Shown: positions 1-64,000 of the stretch, one piece after another | Position numbering within the stretch: position 1 is the first letter of the stretch | How the letters are laid out: every line of letters starts with the position of its first letter | From: Cyanidioschyzon merolae | Lineage: Eukaryota | Strand: one strand, 5' to 3' | Length of the DNA: 64,000 nt | Assembly (NCBI GenBank): GCA_000091205.1 | Contig: AP006495.2 | Notes under the pieces: generated by a model | Told to the model about the DNA's origin: nothing | Databases searched by the model: none | Seen by the model: only the letters and a program-made list of their open reading frames with translations | Program-made: the position numbers and the translations under genes

Positions 1-420
1 GGCATGGTGTGCGGCAAGCCGATCGGACGTCAGCGGGCGAGACAATCGAAGACGACCGGCTCGCGATGTGGCGTGCTTGCACCACGAACAACGCGTGTGA
101 GGAGTTTCTGCACGCGGTATCGAACGCGTCGTTCAACACCCGGACCTGCCTGGTGCATCCGGTGCGTCCAGGAGCTCTGTGTTGAGCGGACATTCAAGGG
201 AACGTTTGTTTCGTAACGCAGCCGAGGTACTGTACGAAAGGCGCTGCAGTGTTTTGATGAACAGAAATCCGTGCCCAGGCGAGAGCGAGAACGGGATATT
301 CGCCTAGCGTCATTCACTGGCAGGTTATGGTTCAGCGATCCGGATAGACGTCAGAAGTGCATCGATAACGGTTTGCCGGGGCATTTACTGAGCGACCATG
401 GTGCTCCATGGTTCAACATC
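1..420. repeat. Direct repeat copy 1 (~418 bp, ~98% identical to 8824-9241). It may extend upstream of the window.
   Basis: Base-by-base comparison of 1-420 with 8824-9241 shows only a handful of mismatches. Identity ends after 'ttcaacat' in both copies. Confidence 0.85.
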
Positions 421-587
421 ATGGACGATAAGCGCTCCGCGATCCACCGCTGTCAAATCACGGAACGCACGACGCCAGTCGGCGGATTCGCGCTCTTGGA
501 CGCGCACCTACCCATCAGGCTGGCTCTTGGGACCCGCGTCGCACCTCAAGTGCAGCTGGCCGCCAAAATACAGTTCGGGTATGCGTC

Positions 588-1700
588 ATGTCGTTTTCTT
601 TCGGTTCAGGGTCTACACCGGCTTTCGGTAGCTATAATAGGGGACTCGCTACGCAGTCCAATGCAGCGCAGCCTAGTTTTGGCGTCGGCGGTGTCGGTTC
701 TGGTGACCCCACGAGTGTCGGCAGCGTCGGAGGCAACGCACCCAGGCCTGGTGCCGGTAGTGCACTGGCCGCGCAGGGCTTCGCGGGTACACCGAACCCA
801 CCAATGGATGCTTCTCGGCTACCGGAGGCTCTCGAGCTCTGCTACTATGCACTGGATCCAACAAGTCCGGACTATCCCTTCGCTTTTTATTCCTACAATC
901 GGCGTGAGGACGCAGATGCGCCGCAGCCAGGCGCGGAGACGGTACAGGCACCACCCTGCCCACCGAGACCTCTCGCTCAGTTGTGGATCGAAGCTGTAGA
1001 GTCTAATCCGGATCCGAAAAAATATGCCGTGGTAAGAATCGCAGGGTTCCCAGGCCTGCAAGAGCGTGCAGCCCTGCAAACCCGTCGCCTGGAAGAGCTC
1101 CGACGTGCCACCGAGGACATCGAACAGCGGATATCTCGACTACGTGTCACGTTTGAGCAGCATATCGTCAACAGGTTGGAACGAATTCGAGCACAGCACT
1201 CTCTGTTGGAGACAAAGTTTCTCACTGTTGTGGCGCTCCTGGAATGCACGCTTGTATCCAGGACGGCTGTTGAGACGGCCACCGGAGCGGTGCCGCCGAG
1301 CGCCGCAGGTCGAAGCGCGCTCGTCCTCAAACGAGACAGTGTAGCGGAGTCGCGTCTCCGCGCACGGCTAGATGCCGTGCGGAAACAGCTTGACGGTGCG
1401 AATGGTACGCGCGCTCGCGCGTTGAGGGCGCTTGAGGCCACCGCCACAGTCCTTGGACTAGATATCAGTAGCAGTCCAGAATCGATTCCAGCGGCGTCAG
1501 CTTCGGGGAAGAGCGGTGGCCAATCCTCCACTATAGGGCGGATCCGCCCCGCGGATACTGTTTCTGAGCGACATCTGCTCGAGATCCTGGAGCGTGAACG
1601 TCAGGGTATGGAGCATGTGTTCGAAGTATTGGAACACGATAGGCGGGAAACGGAGACACTTTGGAGAGCGGCTCGTGAGCTGATCGGCCCCACGCGCTGA
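588..1700 (+). CDS. FG-repeat nucleoporin, Nup54/Nup57 family
   Basis: The N-terminus is FG/GS-rich (SFSFGSGSTPAFGSY, SFGVGG). It is followed by 'LAQLWIEAVESNPDPKKYAVVRIAGFPGLQERAALQ', which matches the Nup54 alpha-helical domain signature (W..A...NPDP...V.V.GF..L..R), and then by coiled-coil-like heptads. Confidence 0.6.
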   Translation: MSFSFGSGSTPAFGSYNRGLATQSNAAQPSFGVGGVGSGDPTSVGSVGGNAPRPGAGSALAAQGFAGTPNPPMDASRLPEALELCYYALDPTSPDYPFAFYSYNRREDADAPQPGAETVQAPPCPPRPLAQLWIEAVESNPDPKKYAVVRIAGFPGLQERAALQTRRLEELRRATEDIEQRISRLRVTFEQHIVNRLERIRAQHSLLETKFLTVVALLECTLVSRTAVETATGAVPPSAAGRSALVLKRDSVAESRLRARLDAVRKQLDGANGTRARALRALEATATVLGLDISSSPESIPAASASGKSGGQSSTIGRIRPADTVSERHLLEILERERQGMEHVFEVLEHDRRETETLWRAARELIGPTR

Positions 1701-2172
1701 CACGCACATGGAGCGGCGTTCTCCGCATCATCTGTTTTAAGTGTCTGCTGAAACTTGCCGAAATTTGGAGAATATCATACGCAGAGCGCGACTTCTCTTT
1801 TGTGAATCTTCAGCGGCGAGTCCACAGCGCCTTGGAGGTGCACGATATTTGCGGATGATAACCCGGTCTCAATGTTTACCGATCGCCATGTCGTTGCTGC
1901 GAGTGATGCACCCACGAAATGAAAAACTGTCTATGAAGATTAGAGGACCCTGTAGAGGATATCCGTAGGCAAATGTAGGCATCGAGTTCGGTTTGCATGA
2001 GGGCCCTGGAGCGCGCCGCACCTATTGCTTCCTATTCTCGGACTTGATGTCGACGTGCATGAACTGCAAGTGGTGTTCGCAGGAGGCGTCCATTTGCTCC
2101 ATCGGCATCCCAGATACATGCCGCCGTTCCGAGTTCGATACTACGGAGAAGTGATGGGCGTCGACCTCTGCG

Positions 2173-3093
2173 TTAATCTATTTCGCTTGTTGCAAGTCGT
2201 CTCGCGCGATGTGATAACGAAACTGATGGATTCAGGGCGGTAGGATTATCACCTATCTGTCGTAGACTTGGCGACGAACTGGCATGCAAAGCGACTACTG
2301 CGTGTAACTCGGACACTTCGAACGCGTAAGCGAGGTTTCGGAATCTCTGGGCGGCACTGGCGATCAACCGTACTCCGCCTGACTCGTGTTCTGTACCTCT
2401 CCGGAACAGCATTTCCAGCTTTGTTTCAGTGGCGGCGTTTTCCGGCGATCCGGATCGCGCAATGAGCCGTATGCCGCAGAAAGCCATCCGAGCATGATAC
2501 GATTTTGAACAATAGAGGATCGATGCATTTGTCCGCATCCCACCGAAAGCGCGGAGAATGTCGGTGATCAGGCAAGGATAAACGTGCCTGACACAGGGAG
2601 AAACGCTCTCGGCGAACACTTGTTGGAGTGTTCTCTCTATCTGCCGGACTTGATGCAAGAAAGGAAGTACACGTCCCGCGAGACGATCCATGCGCGCCGC
2701 AGACCGAGGCACAGCGGTCTCGTGAGCGTCTGGCTCAAAGCGCATTCGCCACCCTACCCCAGTCACATTGTAAAGCGTGCAACTGGCGACGTATTGAATT
2801 GGGCAGCATACGGAATGATCGACGCTTTCTCTCTCTATCTCCCTCAAGCATCCATAGAGTCCAGAGAGGTATCCTGCTGAGCGATGACAACGATCATCGC
2901 GCCGTAGTTGTTGCAGTTGCGACGAATACGCCCGCGAGATGCTAAGCCTCATCACTGGTTTCGGGCACGACGCAAACGCTGCGGTGAGCTTGCGGCGCGT
3001 GCACCTCGGCTCTCTCCGAGCGCCGCTGTAACCTATACGTTGTGCCGTCCAAACAAATACGTACGGAGCCCAGCTGCCGATGCCTGTCCACAT
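2173..3093 (-). CDS. Hypothetical protein (306-aa ORF, no recognisable domain)
   Basis: Long ORF only. It is partly overlapped by shorter ORFs on the other strand. Confidence 0.25.
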   Translation of the reverse strand: MWTGIGSWAPYVFVWTAQRIGYSGARREPRCTRRKLTAAFASCPKPVMRLSISRAYSSQLQQLRRDDRCHRSAGYLSGLYGCLREIERESVDHSVCCPIQYVASCTLYNVTGVGWRMRFEPDAHETAVPRSAARMDRLAGRVLPFLHQVRQIERTLQQVFAESVSPCVRHVYPCLITDILRAFGGMRTNASILYCSKSYHARMAFCGIRLIARSGSPENAATETKLEMLFRRGTEHESGGVRLIASAAQRFRNLAYAFEVSELHAVVALHASSSPSLRQIGDNPTALNPSVSLSHRARRLATSEID

Positions 3094-3624
3094 AGTTGCC
3101 GCTCACCTGAATGCCATCGAAATAGCTCGGAGCACCCGAGCTCAAGTCGAGAGTCGCGCTTGTGTTATGACGCTCGAACCTAGGTACCGCGGGCGCCTGT
3201 AAACCTTGCTTACCCGGGAAACCTCTCATAGACGCTATCGCACAAAAGTGCTTTCAGTCTTCGAACATCTGAGTATTGGCGGAAACCAACGCGCTGTCTC
3301 CTTGGTCCGTCATGTCTCCGTTTCCACGACAGCCTTGATGAGACGAACCCACGATCCATGCGCCATGCGCCGTGAGGAAGTACGCTGAAGCGCGGGCAGG
3401 CTCTTTGAAAGTCACCTGTGCACGCACATACGCACAAAGGCACACAGGCACAGTAGCGTGGATACTGATGCCGCGCGCTTCCGCCGCTATCGATAAGGAG
3501 CGTAGCAGGCGAGTCCTTCCCCCAGTGTCGATGCATGTACGGTGTGGGCTGGTGGTGCTTTCGATGCACAGGGAGCGGCGTGCGCGGAGCCGCTCCAGAA
3601 GCACGTGAGGTAGGCTCGGCACTA

Positions 3625-4100
3625 GGAATGCCGCTGGAGTGTACCGCTATCACGATGGTAATACTTGCCTGGGGCTGGTCGATTCTTGTTGTAGGTCTGG
3701 AGCGAGGCGTGATCGTCATGTCGCTGGACCAAAATGCGATTCCAATGGTAAGACTTGCCTGGGGCTAAACGATTCTCGTTATGTGTCTAGACCGAGGCGT
3801 GATCGTCATGTCGCTGGACCAAAATGCGATTCCAATGGTAAGACTTGCCTGGGGCTAAACGATTCTCGTTATGTGTCTAGACCGAGGCGTGATCGTCATG
3901 TCGCTGGACCAAAATGCGATTCCAATGGTAAGACTTCCCTGGGGCTGGTCGATTCTCGTTATGTGTCTAGACCGAGGCGTGATCGTCATGTCGCTGGACC
4001 AAAATGCGATTCCAATGGTAAGACTTGCCTGGGGCTAAACGATTCTCGTTATGTATACGGAGCGAGGCGTGATCGTCATGTCGCTGGCTTTCGTACCGAT
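3625..4100. repeat. Minisatellite, 90-bp unit x ~5.3 copies
   Basis: The unit 'gatcgtcatgtcgctggaccaaaatgcgattccaatggtaagacttgcctggggctaaacgattctcgttatgtgtctagaccgaggcgt' is repeated in tandem at 3706, 3796, 3886 and 3976. The flanking copies are degenerate. Confidence 0.9.
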
Positions 4101-8823: not shown

Positions 8824-9241
8824 GGCATGGTGTGCGGCAAGCCGATCGGACGTCAGCGGGCGAGACAATCGAAGACGACCGGCTCGCGATGTGGCGTGCT
8901 TGCACCACGAACAACGCGTGTGAGGAGTTTCTGCACGCGGTATCGAACGCGTCGTTCAACACCCGGACCTGCCTGGTGCTTCCGGTGCGTCCAGCAGCTC
9001 TGTGTTGAGCGGACATTCGAGGGAACGTTTGTTTCGTAACGCAGCCGAGGTACTGTACGAAAGGCGCTGCAGTGTTTTGATGAACAGAAATCCGTGCCCA
9101 GGCGAGAGCGAGAACGGGATATTCGCCTAGCGTCATCCACTGGCAGGTTATGGTTCAGCGATCCGGATAGACGTCAGAAGTGCATCGATAACGGTTTGCC
9201 GGGGCATTTACTGAGCGACCATGGTGCTCCATGATTCAACA
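8824..9241. repeat. Direct repeat copy 2 (partner of 1-420)
   Basis: Near-identical to 1-420. The ORFs 8644..9039(+) and 8853..9140(-) duplicate ORFs 4..216(+) and 30..317(-). Confidence 0.85.
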
Positions 9242-9861
9242 TGACTGCGTATTCTTCGGCCTACTCGGACGAATCACGTTAACTATCCTCGATTTCATCA
9301 TGATCATCGTGTAGGCGTGTTTCTGCTCGACCATCACAAGCCATGCGTTCGAGCCCTGCAATGTAAAGCGTTCACGCCATAGAGTACCACACACAACAGC
9401 TTGGGCGCGAGGGCCCTTGGTTGCGTCTGAAACATGCTCCCTCGCGCTTCCGAAACAGCTCACAACTTGTTCCCGAGATACTCGTTCATGTTCAAAACGA
9501 CTAGGCAGGCCAGTGTCAGTGGGCATTGCAGCATCGATTGCCGTGCAGCTGAGTGACGCGCAGACTAGAGACGATTCGGCGCTGGAGTGTTGACGGCATT
9601 GACACAAGCGGAGCGAGGCGCTCCTGCATCACTTGAGCGTCCAGCCTCGACGCGAAGGCTGGTCTTCAGAGAGCGGCCCTCGGGAGCGCCTTCAATGGAA
9701 CTTCGGTCATTTTCTTGACTACAATCCACTAAAAGCGTACAGAAACCGCTGGATAGATGTTTCAGTGCTGTGTTGCAAAAGGCGCGACCCGACATCAACT
9801 GTCACGTCGGAATGCTTGACGGCGTTCAGGCCGCGAAGCGTCCGTCACACCAGCAGCACCA

Positions 9862-10270
9862 TCTCACAACGCATGGACGATGGAAGTATATCTGTCCCAT
9901 GATCACTGCAGCGCAGCAGTGCGCTGTACAAACAGCACCATCTCACAACGCATGGACGATGGAAATATATCTTGACCCATGATCACTGCAGCGTAGCAGT
10001 GCGCTGTACAAACAGCATCGCCAGTGCGATTGGACGATGGAAATATATCTTGACCCATGATCACTGCAGCGTAGCAGTGCGCTGTACAAACAGCATCGCC
10101 AGTGCGATTGGACGATGGAAATATATCTTGACCCATGATCACTGCAGCGTAGCAGTGCGCTGTACAAACAGCACCATCTCACAACGCATGGACGATGGAA
10201 ATATATCTGACCCATGATCACTGCAGCGTAGCAGTGCGCTGTACAAACAGCATCGCCAGTGCGATTTTTT
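9862..10270. repeat. Minisatellite, 78-81-bp unit x ~5 copies
   Basis: The unit '...gacgatggaaatatatcttgacccatgatcactgcagcgtagcagtgcgctgtacaaacagca(tcgccagtgcgattg|ccatctcacaacgcatg)' is repeated in tandem. ORFs 9903..10142(-), 9943..10281(-) and 9972..10217(+) merely translate the repeat. Confidence 0.9.
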
Positions 10271-16216: not shown

Positions 16217-16399
16217 TCACTAGTTTCTGAAAACTGGTACTCCGATAAGGTGAAGTAAGATTGTCGAAGCAGTAACTGTTCATTGCAGGCTTTGCTGCGC
16301 CGCCTCCAGCGCCGATCTGCAACGCTTGTCCAGTGATTTAGAAATGGACGGTCAGCGCGATTTGCTTTGTGTTTCATAGACGCTTACCTTGATCGGGGA

Positions 16400-16615
16400 T
16401 CCCAGATTGCGGTACGGATGGTACCATTCAGAGATGCGTCCAGCATTTCCATTCCAAGTTCCATAACCCATACTTCTTCTTTGATGTGCTGGTGGTTTTT
16501 TACGTTCTGTCGTGCGCCGAGTGCCTGCCCTGATCGTCCGTGATAGCGCCTGTGCCGCCAGTTTGGATGCATCACAGCGACAGAACCACTTTGCCATACC
16601 GCAGAGGGCGTCGGC
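16400..16615. repeat. Dispersed repeat family X, copy 1 (~210 bp). The other copy is at 48425-48635.
   Basis: 'cccatacttcttc...ccctgatcgtccg.gatagcgcct.t.gc...gcagagggc.tcggctcg.gg' is shared with the 48.4-48.6 kb copy in the same orientation. Confidence 0.7.
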
Positions 16616-16869
16616 TCGGGGCGCGGTTCACTCGCCACAGAATCGAGCCTCAAATTCGATTCGTGCTCAGCCGGTTTGTGGATGCAGACTTGCCTTCGGT
16701 GCACTGCGCGTTGGAGAAATTTGGCTGTTAGGATGTATCCTGGGGGCCGCTTCTCTCTTGCGCGATCGTGTGTGAAATTCGTGTGCGGCTCGCAACACGG
16801 ACTTGTGCTTGGCACCCACCAGTGGGTAGGTGCCCAAAGCGCTGGGCCGACCCGCAATGAACGGTAGTT

Positions 16870-17495
16870 CAGCGAGAGGCGTTGCGCAAAGGCATGCTCG
16901 CAGCGTCGGCACGCTCAACGCAGCGAAAACGTACCGCTCCAATGAGGTATATGAAGACCCATCAGCAGACGCCTGCCAGCCTTTTCCGACCAGCCGCATG
17001 CTATCGATTTCGGCTTCTCCCTATACATTTCGAGCCTGAGAGGCTACCCCACAGAGGGCGTGCGCGCCAGCTCCCCGGGGCTCCTCTCCGGCGCAGCACA
17101 TCTCCTGATGCTCGTTGCAGCATGAAAGTCTCGGTTCACGAATTCCATTCGTTTATTGCCTCCGTTTGCACTCACCAATGCAAGGAGCACTCGAACTCGT
17201 GCCCTCTGCGCCAATACAACCTCGTCATCGTTCCGTCTCGCAAACACCCTTGCTCGCCTATCTCGCCTTTTCTTCGTCTTCTTCTTCATCGTCGAATGCT
17301 CTACTTTGCTCGATGGTTGGCAAGAGGATAATTTTTTCGTTTGCTTCAAGCATCCGGAAATAACGGCCATCAAGGATCACCCATTTCCACATCCATACCT
17401 TTCCCTTGAATTTTTCGTTTTTTGAAAATGAACGCACTTCGAACGCGTCTGCTATGAGCCTCGACAGAGCATTTGCTGACGCTCGCCCGCTGCGG
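16870..17495 (-). mobile_element. TnpB/Fanzor-like element, 5'-truncated copy A (3' module only)
   Basis: The mini-ORF 17044..17373(-) ends in '...NGGNKRMEFVNRDFHAATSIRRCAAPERSPGELARTPSVG'. The downstream tail 'gcctctcaggctcg...aaaaggctggcaggcgtctgctgatgggtcttcatatacc...ttttcgctgcgttgagcgtgccgacgctgcg' is conserved with copies B, D, E and F. Confidence 0.6.
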
Positions 17496-17512
17496 CTTGG
17501 ACTACAATTCAT

Positions 17513-18973
17513 GTGACAAACGGGAACGAGCGTCGATCACCGGCACCGAGCGCGGCGCGTGTTAGGCGCGTGTCCGGCGCGTGTCCGGCGCGTGTCCGGC
17601 GCGTGTCCGGCACGCGTGCAGCGCGCAGACACCTGCCGTCGACGCGGGCATCGGTGAGCATCACGCTCATCACAGGAACGGTAACCGTGGCATGCGCGCT
17701 CCTGCTTGCTCCAGAGCAGGGCTTTGGACTCCTGGTCATCCAAAAGCTGGGAGCTTGTTGCGTGGTTGTCGCAACCACGGTTGTTCGGCACGTTTGGCGC
17801 CAGCAAAGGCCAGGAACAATGGCCTTCGTTCAGCTCGCTTCGAGGAGAACCGGCGGACGAAACCAGTTCCGGGGTCGCGCTGTGGATAGAACGTTAGCGG
17901 GAGGTGTCAGACACCCGAGCGAACGTGGAACTGTAAAGTTTTCCTCAGGTCTGAGGCTGCAACTTACACCGGGGTTCCCTCATTCCAAGGACACTGGGAG
18001 ATCGGGCCGTAGCGACCGGGAGCCTGCATTTTCCGGGGATGCGGATGCGCTGCGCCTTCCTGCCTTGACCAGGGCAGCGCTATCCTTAGCGCCAGCGCTT
18101 GTAACTGTCAGCGCGCAAGACACGTCTGTATCGAGATCAAAAGCTGGAGGCGCCTCTGGAACAAGTCCGATGAATAGTTCTGCGGTCGCATCGTGGCCCA
18201 GAACTGAGCTCACAACCGCAGCGTTTCGATATACGTTCTATTCACTCGGTTCTAACGATAACTTGTACAAGCAAACGCTACAAGCGGAGATACAATCCAA
18301 ATTAATCCACGTGGGCACGGAGGGCGCAGCCCTGATTGTTCGAGTGGATCCAAGCTATGTAGCCTGGGTAGATGACGCACAAATTACAGAGCCGCGAATG
18401 CCCGGGACGCTCGCGGACAGGGTTGGCGGTCGACCGCTGTCCGCCGATGCGCATCTCAGGGGCGGCTCACCAGGGCCGTACCACGCCACAGAATCGATGC
18501 GCAGTGAATTCGTTGCAGATGTCGAACATGGAACTGGAAGGAAACCACATTTCGACCGAGCAGCGTACAAGCGCCTTGACGAGAACCAACGATCGTCGCG
18601 TCCATGCCCTCGGGCGTTGACGTCACCGTACATTGCGGGCGGTGCGCTCCCTTCGGATGAAGAGGGACTCGCTCAAAGATGCCGACTGTATATCGAAGGC
18701 GAAGTTACGCACGCTCTCCCATGTAATGCATCATTCCATGGCCCAAGTCCGCCCGAGTGTTTTATTGTGCGAGTTTTACGAAGGTGCCAGAACGTGTTTC
18801 GACAGTTTGCGGGAAGCGAACCATGCAGCGCATCTCCAACCACCATCGAGGAGTCTGTCGAGGATTTCTGCATTATGTGTTCAGCCCAGAGAGGGAGTGC
18901 AGAGTGCCGCTCTTTTCCTGCGACGCTGGGTACCGGCATTAACGTGGCGTTGAATGCGCTTAGCGCTACATAG
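17513..18973 (+). CDS. Hypothetical protein. The N-terminal part is doubtful because it overlaps the 11-bp repeat and the copy A boundary.
   Basis: 486-aa ORF with no recognisable domain. The first ~60 aa are low-complexity Arg/Ala sequence generated by the repeat. Confidence 0.25.
   Translation: MTNGNERRSPAPSAARVRRVSGACPARVRRVSGTRAARRHLPSTRASVSITLITGTVTVACALLLAPEQGFGLLVIQKLGACCVVVATTVVRHVWRQQRPGTMAFVQLASRRTGGRNQFRGRAVDRTLAGGVRHPSERGTVKFSSGLRLQLTPGFPHSKDTGRSGRSDREPAFSGDADALRLPALTRAALSLAPALVTVSAQDTSVSRSKAGGASGTSPMNSSAVASWPRTELTTAAFRYTFYSLGSNDNLYKQTLQAEIQSKLIHVGTEGAALIVRVDPSYVAWVDDAQITEPRMPGTLADRVGGRPLSADAHLRGGSPGPYHATESMRSEFVADVEHGTGRKPHFDRAAYKRLDENQRSSRPCPRALTSPYIAGGALPSDEEGLAQRCRLYIEGEVTHALPCNASFHGPSPPECFIVRVLRRCQNVFRQFAGSEPCSASPTTIEESVEDFCIMCSAQRGSAECRSFPATLGTGINVALNALSAT
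17557..17612. repeat. 11-bp tandem repeat (GGCGCGTGTCC)x~4.5
   Basis: 'ggcgcgtgtccggcgcgtgtccggcgcgtgtccggcgcgtgtccggcacgcgtg'. Confidence 0.9.
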
Positions 18974-25991: not shown

Positions 25992-26404
25992 ATGCTCTAT
26001 CCTAGGTAGAACGCAGCGTTATGGGAGTAGGCACACGGATACAGCGTCGACACTAGTGCAGAGCTCAGTGGCTGCGTCTTCTGAGGGCCGTGCGCTGCGT
26101 CGGTGCACCGGGGCCATCTGTGCGCGCTGAGAAAGACCCGCTGATCGGCACCGGCAATGCAGGCACAGAAGGCAGCGTTCTCGCTGGGAGACTCGTTCGA
26201 ACAGCTTCAACGTGTTGGACCAGGTTTTCCTTATGAACAGCTTTTGTCCAGGTTCTAGTGCAAACCATGGATAGCTATGATACGTAATCTGCGGGCCGTG
26301 ACATATGGGAATCTTCGAAAGTACGGTTCGTAGTAAACGATAGCAAGAATCAGCCGGTGTGATATGCGAGGGACACCCTCGGCACAAAATTACGGCCTTC
26401 GACC

Positions 26405-27000
26405 ACAAAATTGTTCCACCTTCAGGTGAGTTTCATCAAGTGCGTTTTCGCGGTGTATAGCAGACGCGTTCCAAGTGAGTTCACTCTAAGAAATAGAAAA
26501 TCCATAGGAGAGATATGGGCGAAGAAGTCGGGGATCTGCTAGGATCGGCATCGCCGGCTGCAGGAAAAACACGAAGAAATCCTCTTTTCGCTGACCATGG
26601 GGCGAACAAGAACAACGACAAGAGCGACGATACTCGAGGGAAGGTGTTTGCCCAACGAGATGATGACGAGATTGTAGTGGCATATATGGCACGAGTATTA
26701 GGAATTTTTGCGCCTGTGAATTCAGTCAGCGTCAATGCACGTATGGAGTTTGTGACCCGACACTTCAACGACGCTATTGGTATCAGACGATGTATGGTGC
26801 TAAAGACGAGACCCTAGGACCTGCCACGATCCATCTTTGTGGGGCAGCCTCTCAGGCTCGTAGTGTGTGAGCAGAAACTGAAACGGATTGCAGGCGGTCT
26901 GTCATAAAAAGGCTGGGTGGCGTCTGTGAGTGGGTATGTTTATTCACTTTGTGTTCGTGGGAATGTTTCCGTTTCACTGACTGTCTTGGACCAGACATCA
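26405..27000 (+). mobile_element. TnpB/Fanzor-like element, 5'-truncated copy B (3' module)
   Basis: The mini-ORF 26515..26817 reads '...RGKVFAQRDDDEIVVAYMARVLGIFAPVNSVSVNARMEFVTRHFNDAIGIRRCMVLKTRP'. The 5' boundary block 'ttgttccaccttcaggtgagtttcatcaagtgcgttttcgcggtgtatagcagacgcgttccaag' and the 3' tail 'gcagcctctcaggctcg...attgcaggcgg...aaaaaggctgggtggcgtctgtgagtgggtat...tgtgttcgtgggaatgtttccgtttc' are both shared with the other copies. Confidence 0.6.
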
Positions 27001-27762
27001 TCCTGGGTGCTCGCATTGCGCTTCGAAAGGCCATATGACGTGATGGGGTCACGGCACCGCGGAGCACTGGCACGTCCACTCGACGACAGCCACTTGGGAC
27101 GGTGCGCCCTGACTCGGCCTCCACAGAGAGACACCCCGGTGCTGCCGCATCGCCCTGCATCGACAGCGGCGGCATGCAGATCGCCCCAGCCAGCGTCGCT
27201 GTGTGTGGATCGTCGCGCATGCTCGGATCGCGCGATCCGCTCGCCTTCAATGCGACAGGTGCTCCAACGCTTTGCCACGTGTCCGTTGCTGAATGCGTGC
27301 AGTCGCTATCGCCGTCACGCATGGGCCATGCACGCACGCACGCATGCACGCACGCGGGCGTATGGCGGTATTGAGGCGTGTGCATTGGCGGGCGCTCTTT
27401 CTGGCACTGCAGCCGGGTCCAGCGACAGGCACGTGGCTCAGGGAGCAAGTAGTAACGCCTCACCAGCATCGAGCTTGCGACGTGCAGGAGTGTACGCGGT
27501 GCATCGATGGAGACACGCCTACGGACACGTGTACGACATTGGACTCTGGCAGTGAGCTGGCCTAGTCGGAATGCACTGACGGAGAGATGCAAATGCACAC
27601 CTATAAAGCATGGATTTCGGCAAGCAACCAGGAGCATTTACAGTACACCACCCGAAAGATCCATGCAAGCAAACATTTCGCAGATACTCTGGGCGGCAAC
27701 CAGGAAAACTGGACGTACACACATCCAGATCATACACACAGACCTGCGTCCCGCCCAAGGCC

Positions 27763-34318: not shown

Positions 34319-35143
34319 TCACAGAGTTACTAGCTCCACCGAAAGACTTTCAAAAGTCGATAGCTTGAATATCAGTATACAGTAGTGGCGAGCTGCGCGC
34401 CCCAGATCATACGTCTCCAACTGATGCGCAGATGCCTCCCTGTCTTTTTTGGACCGGCCATCTACTACTGGTTTCAACTTGTTTCCGTAAAATTCCGCCT
34501 GGAGAGGTTCCCCCACAAAGTTGGCTCTTGTCAACTCTGGAGGCCTTCTTTCCATCACCGCACATCTCCTGATATTGATAGCGACATTAAAGTCTCGGTT
34601 CACAAACTCCATACGTTTCTTGCCATCATTGGTTGTACTAACCAATGCGATTAGTCCACGATCTTTCGCCCTCCCTTCCGGTGACTGCTTCGTCAGCGCT
34701 CCGTACTTTGATATATCCACAGGACTCCTCTGGCACTTTTCGATCTGCACGCTCTGGAGTATGCACCCCAGCTCATGGTGTGTATACGATGTTCGGAACT
34801 CATCTACAGGTATCGTAACGAGACGCCTTGTGCACTCCTTGTACGCTCTTGTCGTCGGAGCTGGTGGACATCCTTTTTGGGTCATCCAGCGCCCTGCTCC
34901 GCACGCTACTACGAGCCTCTGACTTTCATCCTCTTTGAAGGCACTCAACTCATTGAAAAAATTCGCGAATGCACGCGGTTTCCCACAATACAAGTTCATA
35001 CGCAAACGAGCCCACCGGGGCTTTGCATACTCATTCCACAGTGCATCCCAATGAGCAACGCGAACTTCCATGAATTCCTGACAAGCTTGAAAGTCTGCTC
35101 CGCGGCTCGTCATCTGGTTCATAGCTTCAAGGTGCTCTTGCAT
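34319..35143 (-). pseudogene. TnpB/Fanzor-like RuvC nuclease, C-terminal portion (RuvC-II/zinc-finger remnant and RuvC-III). The ORF reads through into the flank and ends 1 nt from the SWI3-like ATG.
   Basis: Motifs as above. The expected CxxC...CxxC zinc finger is absent or degenerate. The frame is continuous for 274 aa but is separated by ~236 bp containing stops from the upstream ORF 35379..35993. Confidence 0.45.
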
Positions 35144-36750
35144 TCCTGCATTTCACGTCTCATTTTTCCCTCGCATTCAGTATTCCCGACTCTCGGTGAT
35201 ATCCCGCTCGTGAGAGGTTTAACTGATGCATGTCTTTCTGGCATAAATTGCCTTCAATACCATCCTCCGCACGCTTGGGTACTGCGATGTTATGATATTC
35301 GTATTCATAGGGTCCGCGCCATCGACAATGTCGTTCTCATGCACTTCCTGCGTCGTAGGATACACCTGCTTCTTTTCTTCATGCTTCGTCATGGGCGATA
35401 TCGAAGACGGACCAGTACGATCTGTCTCCAAGCGCCGATTGTGTACATATATGGCTACTCCATCGCGTTCGATCATCCCCGTGAGTACATTTCGCTTGTC
35501 CTTTTTGTGACGTTTGAAATCGAAGATATTCTTCCAAGTACGTCTCCTGCTTTGTACCGGTGAACTCTGTCTTCCTTACATCGAACTCCGGACAGATCTC
35601 CTTCATGATGCCGTACAGGATTCTGGAGTCGATCGTCACAACGCGTGACTTGATGTTGCACAACGGCAGGACGTTGAAGTGCTTCCCCAGAAGCGCAGCC
35701 TTCCGTTTCTCCGACTCTTCATTTTTTCCCGCGCCTACGTCCTTTCCAGTCTTGCGTTCCAGGTCTCGGTCCAAAAACACGAGATAGTGCAGGATTAGGG
35801 TATAGGATCCTTTACCATATTTTTCCATATTTGATATTTTTTCTTGTGAATTCGGCAGCCCCAGTACCGCAAGGTGCTTTCGAATAGCCGCGCGGATCAC
35901 AGAAGCTTCATTCCTTCTCCCGCGTGACATCTTCCCGTCGACGAGTTCGATCTCTTGTGCATTCTTACTCTCGTTCGCGACGCCATTGATCATGGCTCAT
36001 CTCCCTTTCCGAGCGAGACCCGGGTACAGCGCATAGACGGCGCGTACCATGAAGCGTTTGACGTTCACGGTCATCTGATTCCTCAGGTTCGTGAGGTACT
36101 TCATTGCCCCGTAGGCGTAGACCTCCGCGAGTCACCTCTGTATCTAGAACCGCTGCAGCGGTATTTGGGTAATTCTCGTTGAGGGCATGCACTCGCTCAT
36201 TTTCGTCGACGTTTCCCCTCTACCAACGATCAAGTGGCAAATAAAGGTCCTGCTGAAAAAAATCCTCCGGAACCGCGACTGTTTTGATGTCTGTCAGGTC
36301 GCGATACATCCATTTCACCAAATGCATTAGTCCTGAAGGAGCCTTTACATTACTCACGGAGTATGACACGACACGGTTTCTGATGGCCTCTCGCATCTTT
36401 GCCTTGTACGCATTCTTGGTATGTCCAAGAAGACAGACTTTCACACCGACTCTTCATACTGTCGCCTTTCTTGCAGCCTTTGATGTCGGGCTTCCTTCTT
36501 TTGCTCCTTCGTCTCGTCCTGTTCTTCTTTGCTTAGCACTATTTTTCATTCTCTCCGTAAGTCGGCGACACTGTGCCTCCGGGATCCTCCACTTGCTTTT
36601 CCATACCTTTCCTTTTTAATATTTTATGAAAAATAACGCTCGTTAAACGCGTCTGGTAGAAACCGCGAAAAATCACTTTCGTTCACTGACTTGAGGATTA
36701 GAACACAATTGAATTGAAAAACTATACGTTGCCACGACTTTAATGCAAAT
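34380..36750 (-). mobile_element. TnpB/Fanzor-like element, longest copy (C), a ~2.4-kb low-GC island with split ORFs
   Basis: GC drops to roughly 45-48% across this interval, against ~58% for the flanks. ORFs 35379..35993(-) and 34319..35143(-) lie in tandem on the same strand. The 3' ORF contains 'PVDEFRTSYTHHELGC' (compare TnpB 'VDPAYTSQTCS.CG') and 'KKRMEFVNRDFNVAINIRRC' (RuvC-III-like). The tail 'ggccggtccaaaaaagacagggaggcatctgcg' is a diverged version of the tail shared by the other copies. The 5' boundary is approximate. Confidence 0.55.
35379..35993 (-). pseudogene. Upstream ORF of element C (possible N-terminal/RuvC-I part of the TnpB-like protein)
   Basis: Same strand and immediately 5' of the C-terminal ORF. 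'[14 protein letters not shown]' could be a RuvC-I-like 'xxIDxG' segment. The assignment is weak. Confidence 0.3.
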
Positions 36751-37757
36751 ACAACTTGACCGGTAGAGCAACAAGACAACGAATGGTCACGAATGCATTT
36801 CCCTTCAAAGGCGACATGCGCGTCGTGTCTCGAGGCTGCCAGGTTTGGAGATGCGCGTATCGAGCGCGCTATATAGAACAAAGAACAGAGACTCACTTGT
36901 AACTAGCAACGAGATAACGAGTTCTTTCCCTGTGTACGATCAACGTCAAAAATGGGGAAAAGATTTCCATATTGTCCAAAATATTCCTCATAGACGGACG
37001 GTCCCGCGAGCCGGACAAGTCTACCAGGCTGGTGCTTCCTGCTCCCCCAGCGGCAGGCGCTTTCGTGAACTCCGAGCAGCACGTCCGCAACGCCATTCAT
37101 TGTGGAATTACAAGTCGGCAGAATGCTTCTGGGCGTGTCGCCCTGGTCGCAGAGGGCTCCTAATACGCTGCTTCACGCTGCCGCAGGCAGAGGGTCTATC
37201 TGCCCAGGTATCAGCCTCTCAAAATGATATTTAGCCCTGATTCCGTAGCAGATGGAGCACGCCTCGAGCCGACGCCCTCTGTGGTATAAAAAAGCCGTTC
37301 TAGCTCTATGAACTATCTGCTCCAGCTGTTCAGGCGCAAAGGCGGATACGGAAAGGCAGGTACTCGGCGCACGATAGAACATAGGAGACGACCAGCATAT
37401 CCGAGAGGAATTATGGTTAACGAAGCTTGAAGGAAGGGTGCAGCATGATGAAAGCTTTTGAGCTTTCCAATATCCATCCCGCAGTCTGGGATCCGTAGTC
37501 CATACAAACGTGCTGTCATCGAAAAGCAAAAAATCGGACACACAGACTCGACGCGTCGACGGCGCTACGTTTGGCGGCTAGCGGCCTGGTGGCGCCTTTT
37601 CGCTGGGCGCAATTCGCTGCGGCGGACTGACTGAATGGGCGATAGCGCGGCAGCCATTGGAAGGCCGCGCTGTGGTATGTACGGAACCTAAGACGCTGGA
37701 GTCGCATGGGGTTGGACTCTTGACCAAAGAACCCTTCAACTTCTCCTTTGTGTACAT

Positions 37758-47862: not shown

Positions 47863-48424
47863 GGCAGACGCTTGAAGCGCTGGAGAATTCCATTCCAGAC
47901 CGGTGCGAATCCGGCGTCGGTTATCCTGATTGGAGTTATGGTAGAGTCTGCGCGAAATGCAACGTAAAAGGACGGTTGCTCGGGTGTCCTTCCTGTGAGC
48001 GCATTACCCCCGATATTCCAAGCAACGCAGCGATCATATCGTGGAATCGTAGTTTGAACGCAGAGCTTGTTCCGCTGTTGCGAAGGGTCGGCTGCTGATA
48101 GTGTTGCTGTCTTTGGCAGATATCCATCGCTGAAATGGCAAACATGAAAGCTGCTCCACCGTGCTGTGGTGCCCGCACCGACGCGATCGGCGTCATAGCG
48201 AGTGCTCGCGGTGAGCTCGGCACCCGGGGATTGTACGAACTGACGAATATTCCCAAAGGCAAGTATGGGCGAGGGCACCTGTATCTCGGGGGTGGTTCAG
48301 CGCCGAATGCAGCACGCTCTCCGGGACGCGCATCGCAGTCGTGAAGTCGGAGATCCGCCGGTTCTCTTTTTTATTTGGTAAAACATTTACACACAGGCCA
48401 GCGTTGCTCATCTGTGCGTTTGAT

Positions 48425-48635
48425 ACCAGCGCGCGGTGAAGCATCCATCGCTCCACACCCTACTTCCAGGCTCCGTAGCCCATACTTCTTCTCGGGTATA
48501 ATGGTGGTTTGATGCTTTCAATCGAGCACCTAGTGCCTTCCCTGATCGTCCGCTATAGCGCCTATAGCGCCGGTGCGGTTGCAGCACGGAGACGGAACGG
48601 CTTTGCAGTACCGCGGAGGGCATCGGCTCGAGGAT
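48425..48635. repeat. Dispersed repeat family X, copy 2
   Basis: Aligns with 16400-16615 in the same orientation. The ORFs 48408..48695(-) and 16384..16857(-) share the peptide 'RRY.GRSG.ALGAR...H...EEVW', which reflects this nucleotide repeat. Confidence 0.7.
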
Positions 48636-59974: not shown

Positions 59975-60504
59975 GTTTCCCCTTCACTGACTTGCCGGAT
60001 TGCATTATCATCATTGAAGGCAAGGCCTCCGCGGAGCAATATTTGAAACGCCATCTGCAGCATCCTCAAGGATGCTACTGCTAGTGATTCCGTCATGGGG
60101 GGCGCTGCCAGCTTTCCGGTAGCTGTGATGCCTGCAACTTTGCTGGTACTCTGTTCCCTTGATGCATGATTGGAGCGAATCTTCGGTTTGTGTACGTTAG
60201 CGAGCATGATGAGATGCCACGTGCACTGCGCCTGCGTCGGTTTCATGTTATGTGGAGGCTTTGAGGATCAGAATGGATGTGACGGCCATGAAAGCAAATG
60301 TGGCATCCTAGAATTGCGATGGAACGCAAAAGAAACGATGCCTAGTGCTGACCTCCCAAAGAGGAAACGGCAGAGGATGCTGGCAGCTCCTTTGCGATGG
60401 TGCCAGACCTTGATGGACATTTGATCCACGGGTTATCCCTACCTAGTGATAAACGACTTGTCCGTGCCAGTGGAACGAAGACTCCAGCGTGCTTGTATAC
60501 GTTT

Positions 60505-61140
60505 CATAATCTTTCACCTACATTGTGTTCCGGCCCTAGGTGGGTGTAATCAAATGCTTTTTCGAGGTTTATAGCAGATTCGCTCGAAAGGCGTTCTTTT
60601 TCAGAAATCGAAAATCTACAAAATGGTTTGGACGTGGAAATTGGGGGTCCCGGAGTTCCGTTGTCCCCGAGTTCAACAAAAAAAGGAAAAAATCCTCTTC
60701 TCGCCAACCTCGCAGCGAAGAAGAGCATGTTACGAAGATGAAGATTGTGACGAGACTGTAGTGGGACAGAGGGTACGAGTTCGAGGAATTCTCCCACTAC
60801 TGTGTTCAACTGGCGGGAAGAAACGCAACGAGTTTGTGAACCGGGACTTCAATGCCGCCATGAATATCAGACGATGCACGGCGAAGCCGAGACCCGACCA
60901 GCCCACGCGAGCCAACTCTGTTGGGCAGCCTCTCAGGCTCGACGCGCAAAAGTAGAAGCTGAGGGCGATTGCAGGGGGCCCGCCAAGAACGGCTGGGAGG
61001 CGTTTGTGACTGGATATCCATTTACCCTACAGCTGCGAAACTTTTTCGCTCCGTTGAGCTTGCAGACCCTGCGCATCCCAACTGGACTCGAACCTAATAT
61101 CGATGTATCCAGAAAGATTAGGGGCGCATTAAAAGTACAG
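60505..61140 (+). mobile_element. TnpB/Fanzor-like element, 5'-truncated copy E (3' module), the best-preserved mini-ORF
   Basis: The mini-ORF 60623..60955 reads '...DCDETVVGQRVRVRGILPLLCSTGGKKRNEFVNRDFNAAMNIRRCTAKPRPDQPTRANSVGQPLRLDAQK'. The 5' block 'cattgtgttccggccctaggtgggtgtaatcaaatgctttttcgaggtttatagcagattcg' and the 3' tail 'gcagcctctcaggctcg...gaagctgagggcgattgcagggggcccgccaagaacggctgggaggcgtttgtgactggatatccatttaccctacagctgcgaaactttttcgctccgttgagcttgcagaccctgcg' are both shared with the other copies. Confidence 0.65.
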
Positions 61141-63839: not shown

Positions 63840-64000
63840 TGTAATGCTTCGTGGAACGAAAAATGTCCAACGACCATGGAGGGTACATGTATCTACCCTC
63901 TCGCAGACGCTTCCCAGCTTGTATTCGACCTGCCCCCAACTATCGGCTTCAGCTTCCCTTTGTCCGCTTGGAGCCTGAGAGGCCATCCCCCGAAGTTGGC
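63840..64000 (-). mobile_element. TnpB/Fanzor-like element, copy F. Only the 3' tail is inside the window, and the body lies beyond 64000.
   Basis: Reverse complement of 63840-64000: 'gccaacttcgggggatggcctctcaggctccaagcggacaaagggaagctgaagccgatagttgggggcaggtcgaatacaagctgggaagcgtctgcgagagggtagatacatgtaccctccatggtcgttggacatttttcgttccacgaagcat'. This encodes '...ANFGGWPLRL...' and aligns with the copy E tail block by block. Confidence 0.6.

Follow-up and report, generated by a model that had tools for sequence, protein, structure and literature searches.

Internally deleted non-autonomous DNA transposons and the PATE-like IS200/IS605 derivatives of bacteria keep their ends, have lost their interior and are mobilized in trans. 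Among eukaryotic Fanzor elements, Spizellomyces punctatus carries 134 "ghost" Spu-1 loci of ~550 nt that have no ORF and whose guide RNAs work with SpuFz1 (Saito et al. 2023, PMC10432273). At these loci the inverted repeats are 30 nt long, CA/TAM is conserved, and an experimentally active guide RNA of 75 nt lies past the stop codon (Saito et al. 2023, Nature 620:660). Extra stand-alone guide-RNA copies have been described in Chlamydomonas (Jiang et al. 2023, PMC10530073). In Cyanidioschyzon merolae, the Fanzor1 transposon CMe-1A is present in ~150 copies (Bao & Jurka 2013, Mobile DNA 4:12); the supplement to that paper gives a consensus of 3169 bp with a 734-aa protein. As described there, CMe-1A lacks terminal inverted repeats and target-site duplications, and some copies still encode intact proteins.

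Here, a 64,000-nt stretch of C. merolae contig AP006495.2 (the window) was analyzed around a short element, copy B. We consider it likely that copy B is old and is decaying neutrally, and that it belongs to a ~600-bp ORF-less form of Fanzor1 CMe-1A that was amplified after one deletion. Like ghost Spu-1 loci, the C. merolae short copies are ~550–600 bp long, occur in many copies, lack a Fanzor ORF and keep homology to the guide-RNA-encoding region around the right end. They differ in having no inverted repeats or duplications, in keeping coding remnants and in being old and decayed; moreover, the guide RNA is experimental in Spu-1 and putative in C. merolae. Unlike the bacterial and DNA-transposon derivatives, they have no inverted repeats, target-site duplications or known transposase partner, and unlike gene-bearing CMe-1A they stop short of the published left terminus. 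In Chlamydomonas reinhardtii, the stand-alone guide-RNA copies and the 5′-truncated CRe-1 copies (Jiang et al. 2023; Bao & Jurka 2013) are comparable in that Fanzor1 3′ ends outnumber intact genes, whereas those copies are Helitron2-associated 5′ truncations with variable starts; in the short copies the 5′ segment is fixed and a single internal deletion is present.

Compared with CMe-1A itself, copy B shares the start codon, the RuvC-III motif and the lack of terminal inverted repeats and target-site duplications. It lacks consensus positions 1 to ~790, including the 635-bp TE-N2_CMe-like left part, as well as positions ~1071–2854, nearly the whole gene, and ~40 nt near the 3′ end. It also belongs to an older lineage, 34–43% diverged from the full-length consensus. 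The available text and consensus file of Bao & Jurka (2013) yielded no description of the short form. Its identity with the published TE-N2_CMe was rejected, as that element corresponds to consensus 1–635, which is absent from the short copies.

Copies of the element

The window contains the following copies related to CMe-1A, in addition to copy B:

16909–17526, minus strand: copy A, short form; 17521–17333 corresponds to consensus 790–969 and 17236–16965 to 2809–3084
34347–37521, minus strand: copy C, full length, with a frameshifted Fanzor1 gene; consensus 1–3166 at 82% identity
40791–41185, minus strand: copy D, old and 5′-truncated; 41185–40842 corresponds to consensus 2738–3083
60502–61064, plus strand: copy E, short form; 60506–60691 corresponds to consensus 787–969 and 60762–61006 to 2833–3083
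63850–63999, minus strand: copy F, the 3′ end of a further short-type copy running off the end of the window, found by profile match

Copies A, B and E align to the published consensus in two blocks and copy C end to end. Copy D has a 3′ tail of the short type without the short-type junction. All six copies lie in intergenic spacers of a gene-dense region, at a density several times the genome average implied by ~150 copies per 16.5 Mb. The housekeeping proteins around copy B are identical to C. merolae 10D entries BAM81068–81080, which belong to a chromosome of 866,983 bp. A metagenome scan recovered 79 loci, many of them full-length copies, with further short copies in their flanks:

L014:7210–7800: short copy L014s
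L065:2132–2718, also seen as L083:5981–6568: short copy L065s
L054:7928–8241 (L054s) and L067:4–227: further short copies

In all, seven to eight short copies could be compared.

Other fragments of the family were also observed. Solo left ends of CMe-1A (consensus ~8–287, 250–290 bp) lie at window positions 16380–16652 and 48380–48634, one of them inverted and 250 bp downstream of copy A; they represent the part that matches TE-N2_CMe, listed as a separate element by Bao & Jurka. In the metagenomes, the last ~100 bp of full-length CMe-1A occur alone, with the gene absent, at L021:626–730, L008:1009–1104 and L013:776–882, and may represent another class of remnant made up of the 3′ end only. 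Furthermore, an 801-aa ORF at L014:4004–6406, also present at L042:231–2633 and L047:4007–6409, starts inside the Fanzor1 C-terminus (MERMSKVRGLLALVS…) and reads past the 3′ end of the element into downstream sequence; either chance read-through or fusion to a host gene could account for it.

Relationship to Fanzor1

The ORF fragments of full-length copy C, on the minus strand, carry VDEFRTS and NRDFNVAINIRR. Homologues of one fragment are plentiful on hot-spring metagenome contigs and bring in the GADPGNTN motif. A profile of 30 family members, built from distant relatives that include P0021 (70% identical to the copy C ORF fragment over the aligned part), matched the solved Fanzor1 structures 9CF0 (E=1.7e-20), 8GKH (E=2.4e-12) and 9CER (E=6.8e-07), and the matches run across the RuvC motifs. 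In the family consensus, RuvC-I, RuvC-II and RuvC-III occur in order as GADPGNTN, VDEFRTS and NRDFNAAINIRR and align to DPGRRD, DEFRTS and NRD of 9CF0. Between RuvC-II and RuvC-III, where a Fanzor1 would have a C4 zinc finger, the consensus is TSYTHHELGCTLQRVEMEKCQRSP, which has two Cys and two His only. Searched singly against Pfam, NCBIfam and the PDB, the 274-aa ORF of copy C, the mini-ORFs and the 759-aa consensus had no match of note, and an AlphaFold2 model of P0021 from a shallow alignment was unusable (pLDDT 35). Judged by profile similarity to solved structures and by the order of the RuvC motifs, the parent element is a Fanzor1.

A Helitron-type reading was also considered and rejected. 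The CMe-1A consensus starts with CGATGAC and ends with GAAAGGCG, without 5′-TC … CTRR-3′ termini; its 3′ end does contain a hairpin-capable terminal sequence, without Helitron terminal signatures.

Layout of copy B

In a search with a profile of the short copies, copy B matched profile positions 2–592 of ~600 (nhmmer, E=1.2e-173), and its limits by profile are ~26386–26987, outside which identity drops to the flank background. The 5′ edge is resolved only to 26386–26413, and the 3′ end lies near 26983. DNA homology to CMe-1A consists of two segments of 66% and 68% identity, with E of ~1e-26 each, and the ~1.8 kb between them in the consensus is missing. The features of copy B, all on the plus strand, are as follows:

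26386–26987, plus strand: whole short ORF-less element derived from CMe-1A, delimited by nhmmer and flank identity
26414–26679, plus strand: 5′ segment, equivalent to consensus 810–1070 (blastn, 66.3% over 270 nt, E=7e-26)
26494–26496, plus strand: in-frame TAG, 21 nt before the mini-ORF ATG, read from the sequence
26515–26817, plus strand: mini-ORF of 100 codons in the ORF list, joining the ancestral Fanzor1 ATG to the RuvC-III remnant
26680–26699, plus strand: approximate internal-deletion junction, CMe-1A ~1070–1080 to ~2855–2867, with short microhomology, placed by the abutting blastn segments
26700–26926, plus strand: 3′ segment, equivalent to consensus 2855–3083, with the last ~85 codons (blastn, 67.8% over 230 nt, E=1e-26)
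26740–26790, plus strand: degenerate RuvC-III motif RMEFVTRHFNDAIGIRR with the catalytic D changed to H, from translation against the consensus RMEFVNRDFNAAINIRR
26846–26935, plus strand: best-conserved block of the short family, after the stop codon of B, by pairwise identity and alignment; hairpin-capable AGCCTCTCAGGCT at 26846–26858
26926–26947, plus strand: hairpin GTGAGTGGG/TATG/TTTATTCAC following the conserved GGCGTCTG, from local folds against shuffles
26948–26983, plus strand: 3′ terminal tail …GGAATGTTTCCGTTTCACTGACTG, homologous in alignments to the CMe-1A terminus …GCGTTTTTCTTTTGAAAGGCG

The 5′ segment contains the ancestral start codon, ~95 nt before it and ~55 codons. The start codon is the same ancestral Fanzor1 ATG at which the ORF of full-length copies begins: copy B reads MGEEVGD.. 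where the published CMe-1 protein reads MEKEVEDP.., and the two N-termini are MGEEVGDLLGSASPAAGK and MEKEVEDPGGPVSPAAGK, respectively. The RuvC-III motif differs from the family consensus by four substitutions, the catalytic Asp to His among them, in agreement with its earlier characterization as degenerated. With RuvC-I and RuvC-II deleted, a complete RuvC catalytic triad is absent from copy B. The 5′ block is unique in an exact-string search; it aligns with copies A and E, as does the whole 3′ tail, and the homology among A, B and E extends over ~600 bp (nhmmer, E of ~1e-163 to 1e-173), as the preliminary description had proposed for the 5′ block and the tail. A splice-donor look-alike in the 5′ block, CAGGTGAGT, is not kept in A or E, so the resemblance is coincidental.

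Conservation and predicted folding of the 3′ end

Among the short copies, mean pairwise identity is 0.69–0.73 at 26846–26935, 0.27–0.53 in the rest of the element and 0.17–0.25 in the flanks. This peak lies beyond the stop codon of copy B, where the reading frames are already broken, and thus points to a past requirement for the 3′ module in cis. The 3′-most 188 nt of the full-length consensus form a fold that outscores shuffled sequence (z −2.47, 2/200), and the predicted fold contains a long helix, CAGUAGUGG…CCACUACUG. This main predicted helix lacks its 3′ strand in the short copies, where ~40 nt (~36–40 by alignment) are missing. After GGCGTCTG, the sibling copies also have hairpins, with different stems; local folds against shuffles gave p values of 0.013 for B, 0.037 for L014s, 0.073 for D, 0.10 for A, 0.10 for L065s and 0.37 for E. 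The 3′ module as a whole is no more stable than shuffles in copy B (z +0.69) and not unusually stable in the short-family consensus (z −0.30). For six short copies, the consensus fold from RNAalifold was weak and its covariation term positive; for 40 full-length 3′ ends, almost nothing was predicted. Covariation was not significant with RNAalifold or in pair counts, where hand-defined helices were no different from shuffles, and Rfam and tRNA scans gave no match. Synonymous sites of the full-length gene are not clearly more conserved toward its 3′ end (0.76–0.78 versus 0.72–0.74).

Across 13 haplotypes, 4.2% of sites segregate in the 3′ module of copy B and 2.0–5.8% in the surroundings, that is, without a deficit. 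Zero differences between two strains at 26743–26960 had raised the possibility of constraint; this was rejected, as 27 sequences give seven segregating sites there, the same density as elsewhere.

These data bear on whether copy B functions now as a stand-alone guide-RNA "ghost" locus, transcribed and used by an intact CMe-1A Fanzor1 elsewhere in the genome. Intact proteins are encoded by some CMe-1A copies according to Bao & Jurka (2013), ghost guide RNAs function with SpuFz1, and in C. merolae conservation of the family is highest in the 3′ module, with a local hairpin that stands out from shuffles in copy B itself. Against this, copy B differs from its siblings by 32–39%, its H0 stem as read from the sequence has one mismatch and two wobble pairs, and it shows neither excess folding stability nor a polymorphism deficit. 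The strand needed to complete the main helix of full-length copies is missing as well. We therefore regard present function of this kind as unlikely; on these comparisons, copy B shows no sign of activity or constraint today. The preliminary description held that the element still carries the scaffold. The part of this claim that stood is the superior conservation of the 3′ module; the missing ~40 nt and the lack of a folding excess, of covariation and of a polymorphism deficit speak against the rest, and for copy B the conservation pattern and the precedent of other species only weakly suggest a scaffold.

Origin and spread of the short form

The junction motif GACGAGACTGTAGTGGCA..AGAGGGCACGAGTTCGAGG is common to A, B, E, L014s, L065s and L054s, six copies at distinct loci; besides the window copies, three or four from hot-spring metagenome contigs carry this junction. 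All share a layout that starts ~120 nt before the ancestral ATG, continues for ~55–58 codons and then passes to the last ~85 codons. Together with partial copies, they form a multi-copy element without a Fanzor ORF. In a tree, the short copies are 27–39% diverged from one another and fall outside the tight full-length clade. Since independent copies have a common junction, the deleted form was copied to many loci; the common junction, combined with a lineage apart from the full-length copies, indicates one deletion followed by spread, and hence a true non-autonomous family. As the short form has neither a nuclease nor a transposase gene, it must have been moved in trans. The earlier reading of the element as a non-autonomous, nuclease-less derivative, as opposed to what random truncation leaves of a gene at its 3′ side, is borne out by this junction and by the content of the 5′ block, which consists of pre-ATG sequence and the start codon and not of internal coding sequence.

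The alternative is that the short copies arose in place, by the same microhomology-mediated deletion in each full-length insertion, so that no mobile short family exists. The junction does lie in short microhomology, with GACGAG…ATGG…AAAG on both sides of the deletion, and alignments to the two sides overlap there. Old copies with a short-type 3′ tail and more coding sequence (copy D and L034:534–802) also speak for this alternative; they show that the short-type 3′ characters belong to an older lineage and are not markers of the deletion. What such recurrence would have to explain is that six copies at different loci agree not only in the junction but also in the linker sequence and in the 5′ start ~120 nt before the ATG, and seven identical independent double truncations are very unlikely. 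In-place deletion is thus highly improbable, and a single deletion followed by spread is the reading retained here.

The ends of the short form differ in how they relate to those of CMe-1A. At the 3′ side, homology to the end of CMe-1A covers the last ~25 nt, and the 5′ end stops ~790 nt inside the consensus. Upstream of that point, the full-length copies stay conserved for 160 to 800 nt further, so the short form is without the published left terminus. The 5′ block is not the end of a longer coding stretch: what lies upstream of it in full-length copies is non-coding and belongs partly to the separate element TE-N2_CMe. In a test for terminal inverted repeats, end-to-end inverted alignment of the short copies gave scores that did not exceed those of shuffles, and a consistent direct repeat, as expected of a target-site duplication, was not found; a MITE was accordingly rejected as a classification. 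A search for an empty orthologous site found none, as all 29 orthologous contigs that reach past the 5′ edge of copy B carry the element. Separately, three independent metagenome/Logan contigs that are 99.7% identical to the window end at this edge or shortly before it, at 26398 (L002), 26378 (L003) and 26160 (L004), which could reflect assembly breakage at a repeat or structural polymorphism.

Coding capacity

The preliminary description centered on the ATG-initiated ORF of 100 aa with an in-frame stop just upstream, and both are present. As a feature, the ORF did not survive comparison with other strains. The locus was compared with 27 environmental orthologues (13 haplotypes, ~98% identical, all carrying B). 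Every one of the 27 lacks one A of the run at 26565–26569 (at 26569), which shifts the frame and leaves 53 aa, so that only strain 10D has the 100-aa frame. Nor is the fusion frame common to the sibling copies: the frame relation between the ATG and RuvC-III is 0, 2, 1, 0 and 0 in five copies, the start codon is lost in one copy, and stop codons fall at differing places. Differences at codon positions 1, 2 and 3 are 0.345, 0.29 and 0.365 in the short copies and 0.161, 0.107 and 0.243 in the full-length copies. By this measure, the full-length copies are under clear purifying selection, and the short copies are nearly neutral across codon positions.

A functional small protein made from the mini-ORF, such as a regulator or guide-RNA binder from the Fanzor1 C-terminus, is scarcely credible, since the ORFs of 100–110 codons that A, B and E each carry through the RuvC-III codons, and the slightly lower divergence at codon position 2 than at 1 and 3, are set against the truncation in all environmental orthologues, the inconsistent frames, starts and stops, a conservation peak that lies past the stop codon and the lack of a Pfam or NCBIfam match. 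Taken across strains and copies, the mini-ORF is best described as a chance product of one inserted base in strain 10D and is not a gene.

Flanking sequence

The DNA downstream of copy B is GC-rich, as originally noted: 26990–27762 has 60.7% G+C and contains overlapping, chance-like ORFs of 261 aa on the minus strand and 212 aa on the plus strand, together with a (GCAC)6.5 tract at 27330–27355. Different assemblies call the long ORFs of 26984–27762 on different strands, so they look spurious. In this intergenic region, 5.8% of sites segregate, and the (GCAC)n tract (27322–27358) is polymorphic in length and sequence among environmental strains. Elsewhere in the window, a 300-bp direct repeat occurs at 1–300, at the very start, and at 8824–9123, 99% identical and 8.8 kb apart. 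Tandem arrays are present at 3628–4087, with a 90-bp unit repeated ~5 times (87–89% identity), and at 9849–10265, with a 78–80-bp unit repeated ~5 times (up to 100%).

Discussion

The history that we propose for the short form begins with one deletion of ~1.8 kb at a short microhomology, which removed codons ~56–650 of the 734-codon Fanzor1 gene and with them the REC, WED, RuvC-I, RuvC-II and zinc-finger regions. A 5′ end of ~290 bp (upstream region, ATG and ~55 codons) and a 3′ end of ~330 bp (RuvC-III codons, C-terminal tail and terminal non-coding tail) were kept. The deleted form was then copied to many loci, presumably moved by functions supplied in trans, as is thought for the dependence of ghost Spu-1 on SpuFz1. 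The two kept ends may represent the parts required in cis, namely the transcription start region at the 5′ side and, on the other, the right end with part of the putative omega RNA region.

The observation from which this analysis started is real and was mostly read correctly, but it is ordinary. CMe-1A was published in 2013, ORF-less Fanzor satellites have been on record since 2023, and the finding adds little alone. Its value is modest and lies in the existence of a short family with a common junction in C. merolae. In addition, the mini-ORF serves as a caution that an open frame with a nuclease motif can come from a single-base insertion in one laboratory strain.

For the biology of the family, the conservation profile marks the ~90–150 nt after the RuvC-III codons as a candidate core of the Fanzor1 guide RNA. 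It is possible, although we put this forward only tentatively, that the short family is the red-alga counterpart of the ghost loci, in which case the kept pieces, which exclude the H2/S3 segment, the published left terminus and inverted repeats, would define the minimal cis needs for the guide RNA and for CMe-1A mobilization. If true, this would be directly testable in C. merolae, which is haploid and genetically tractable.
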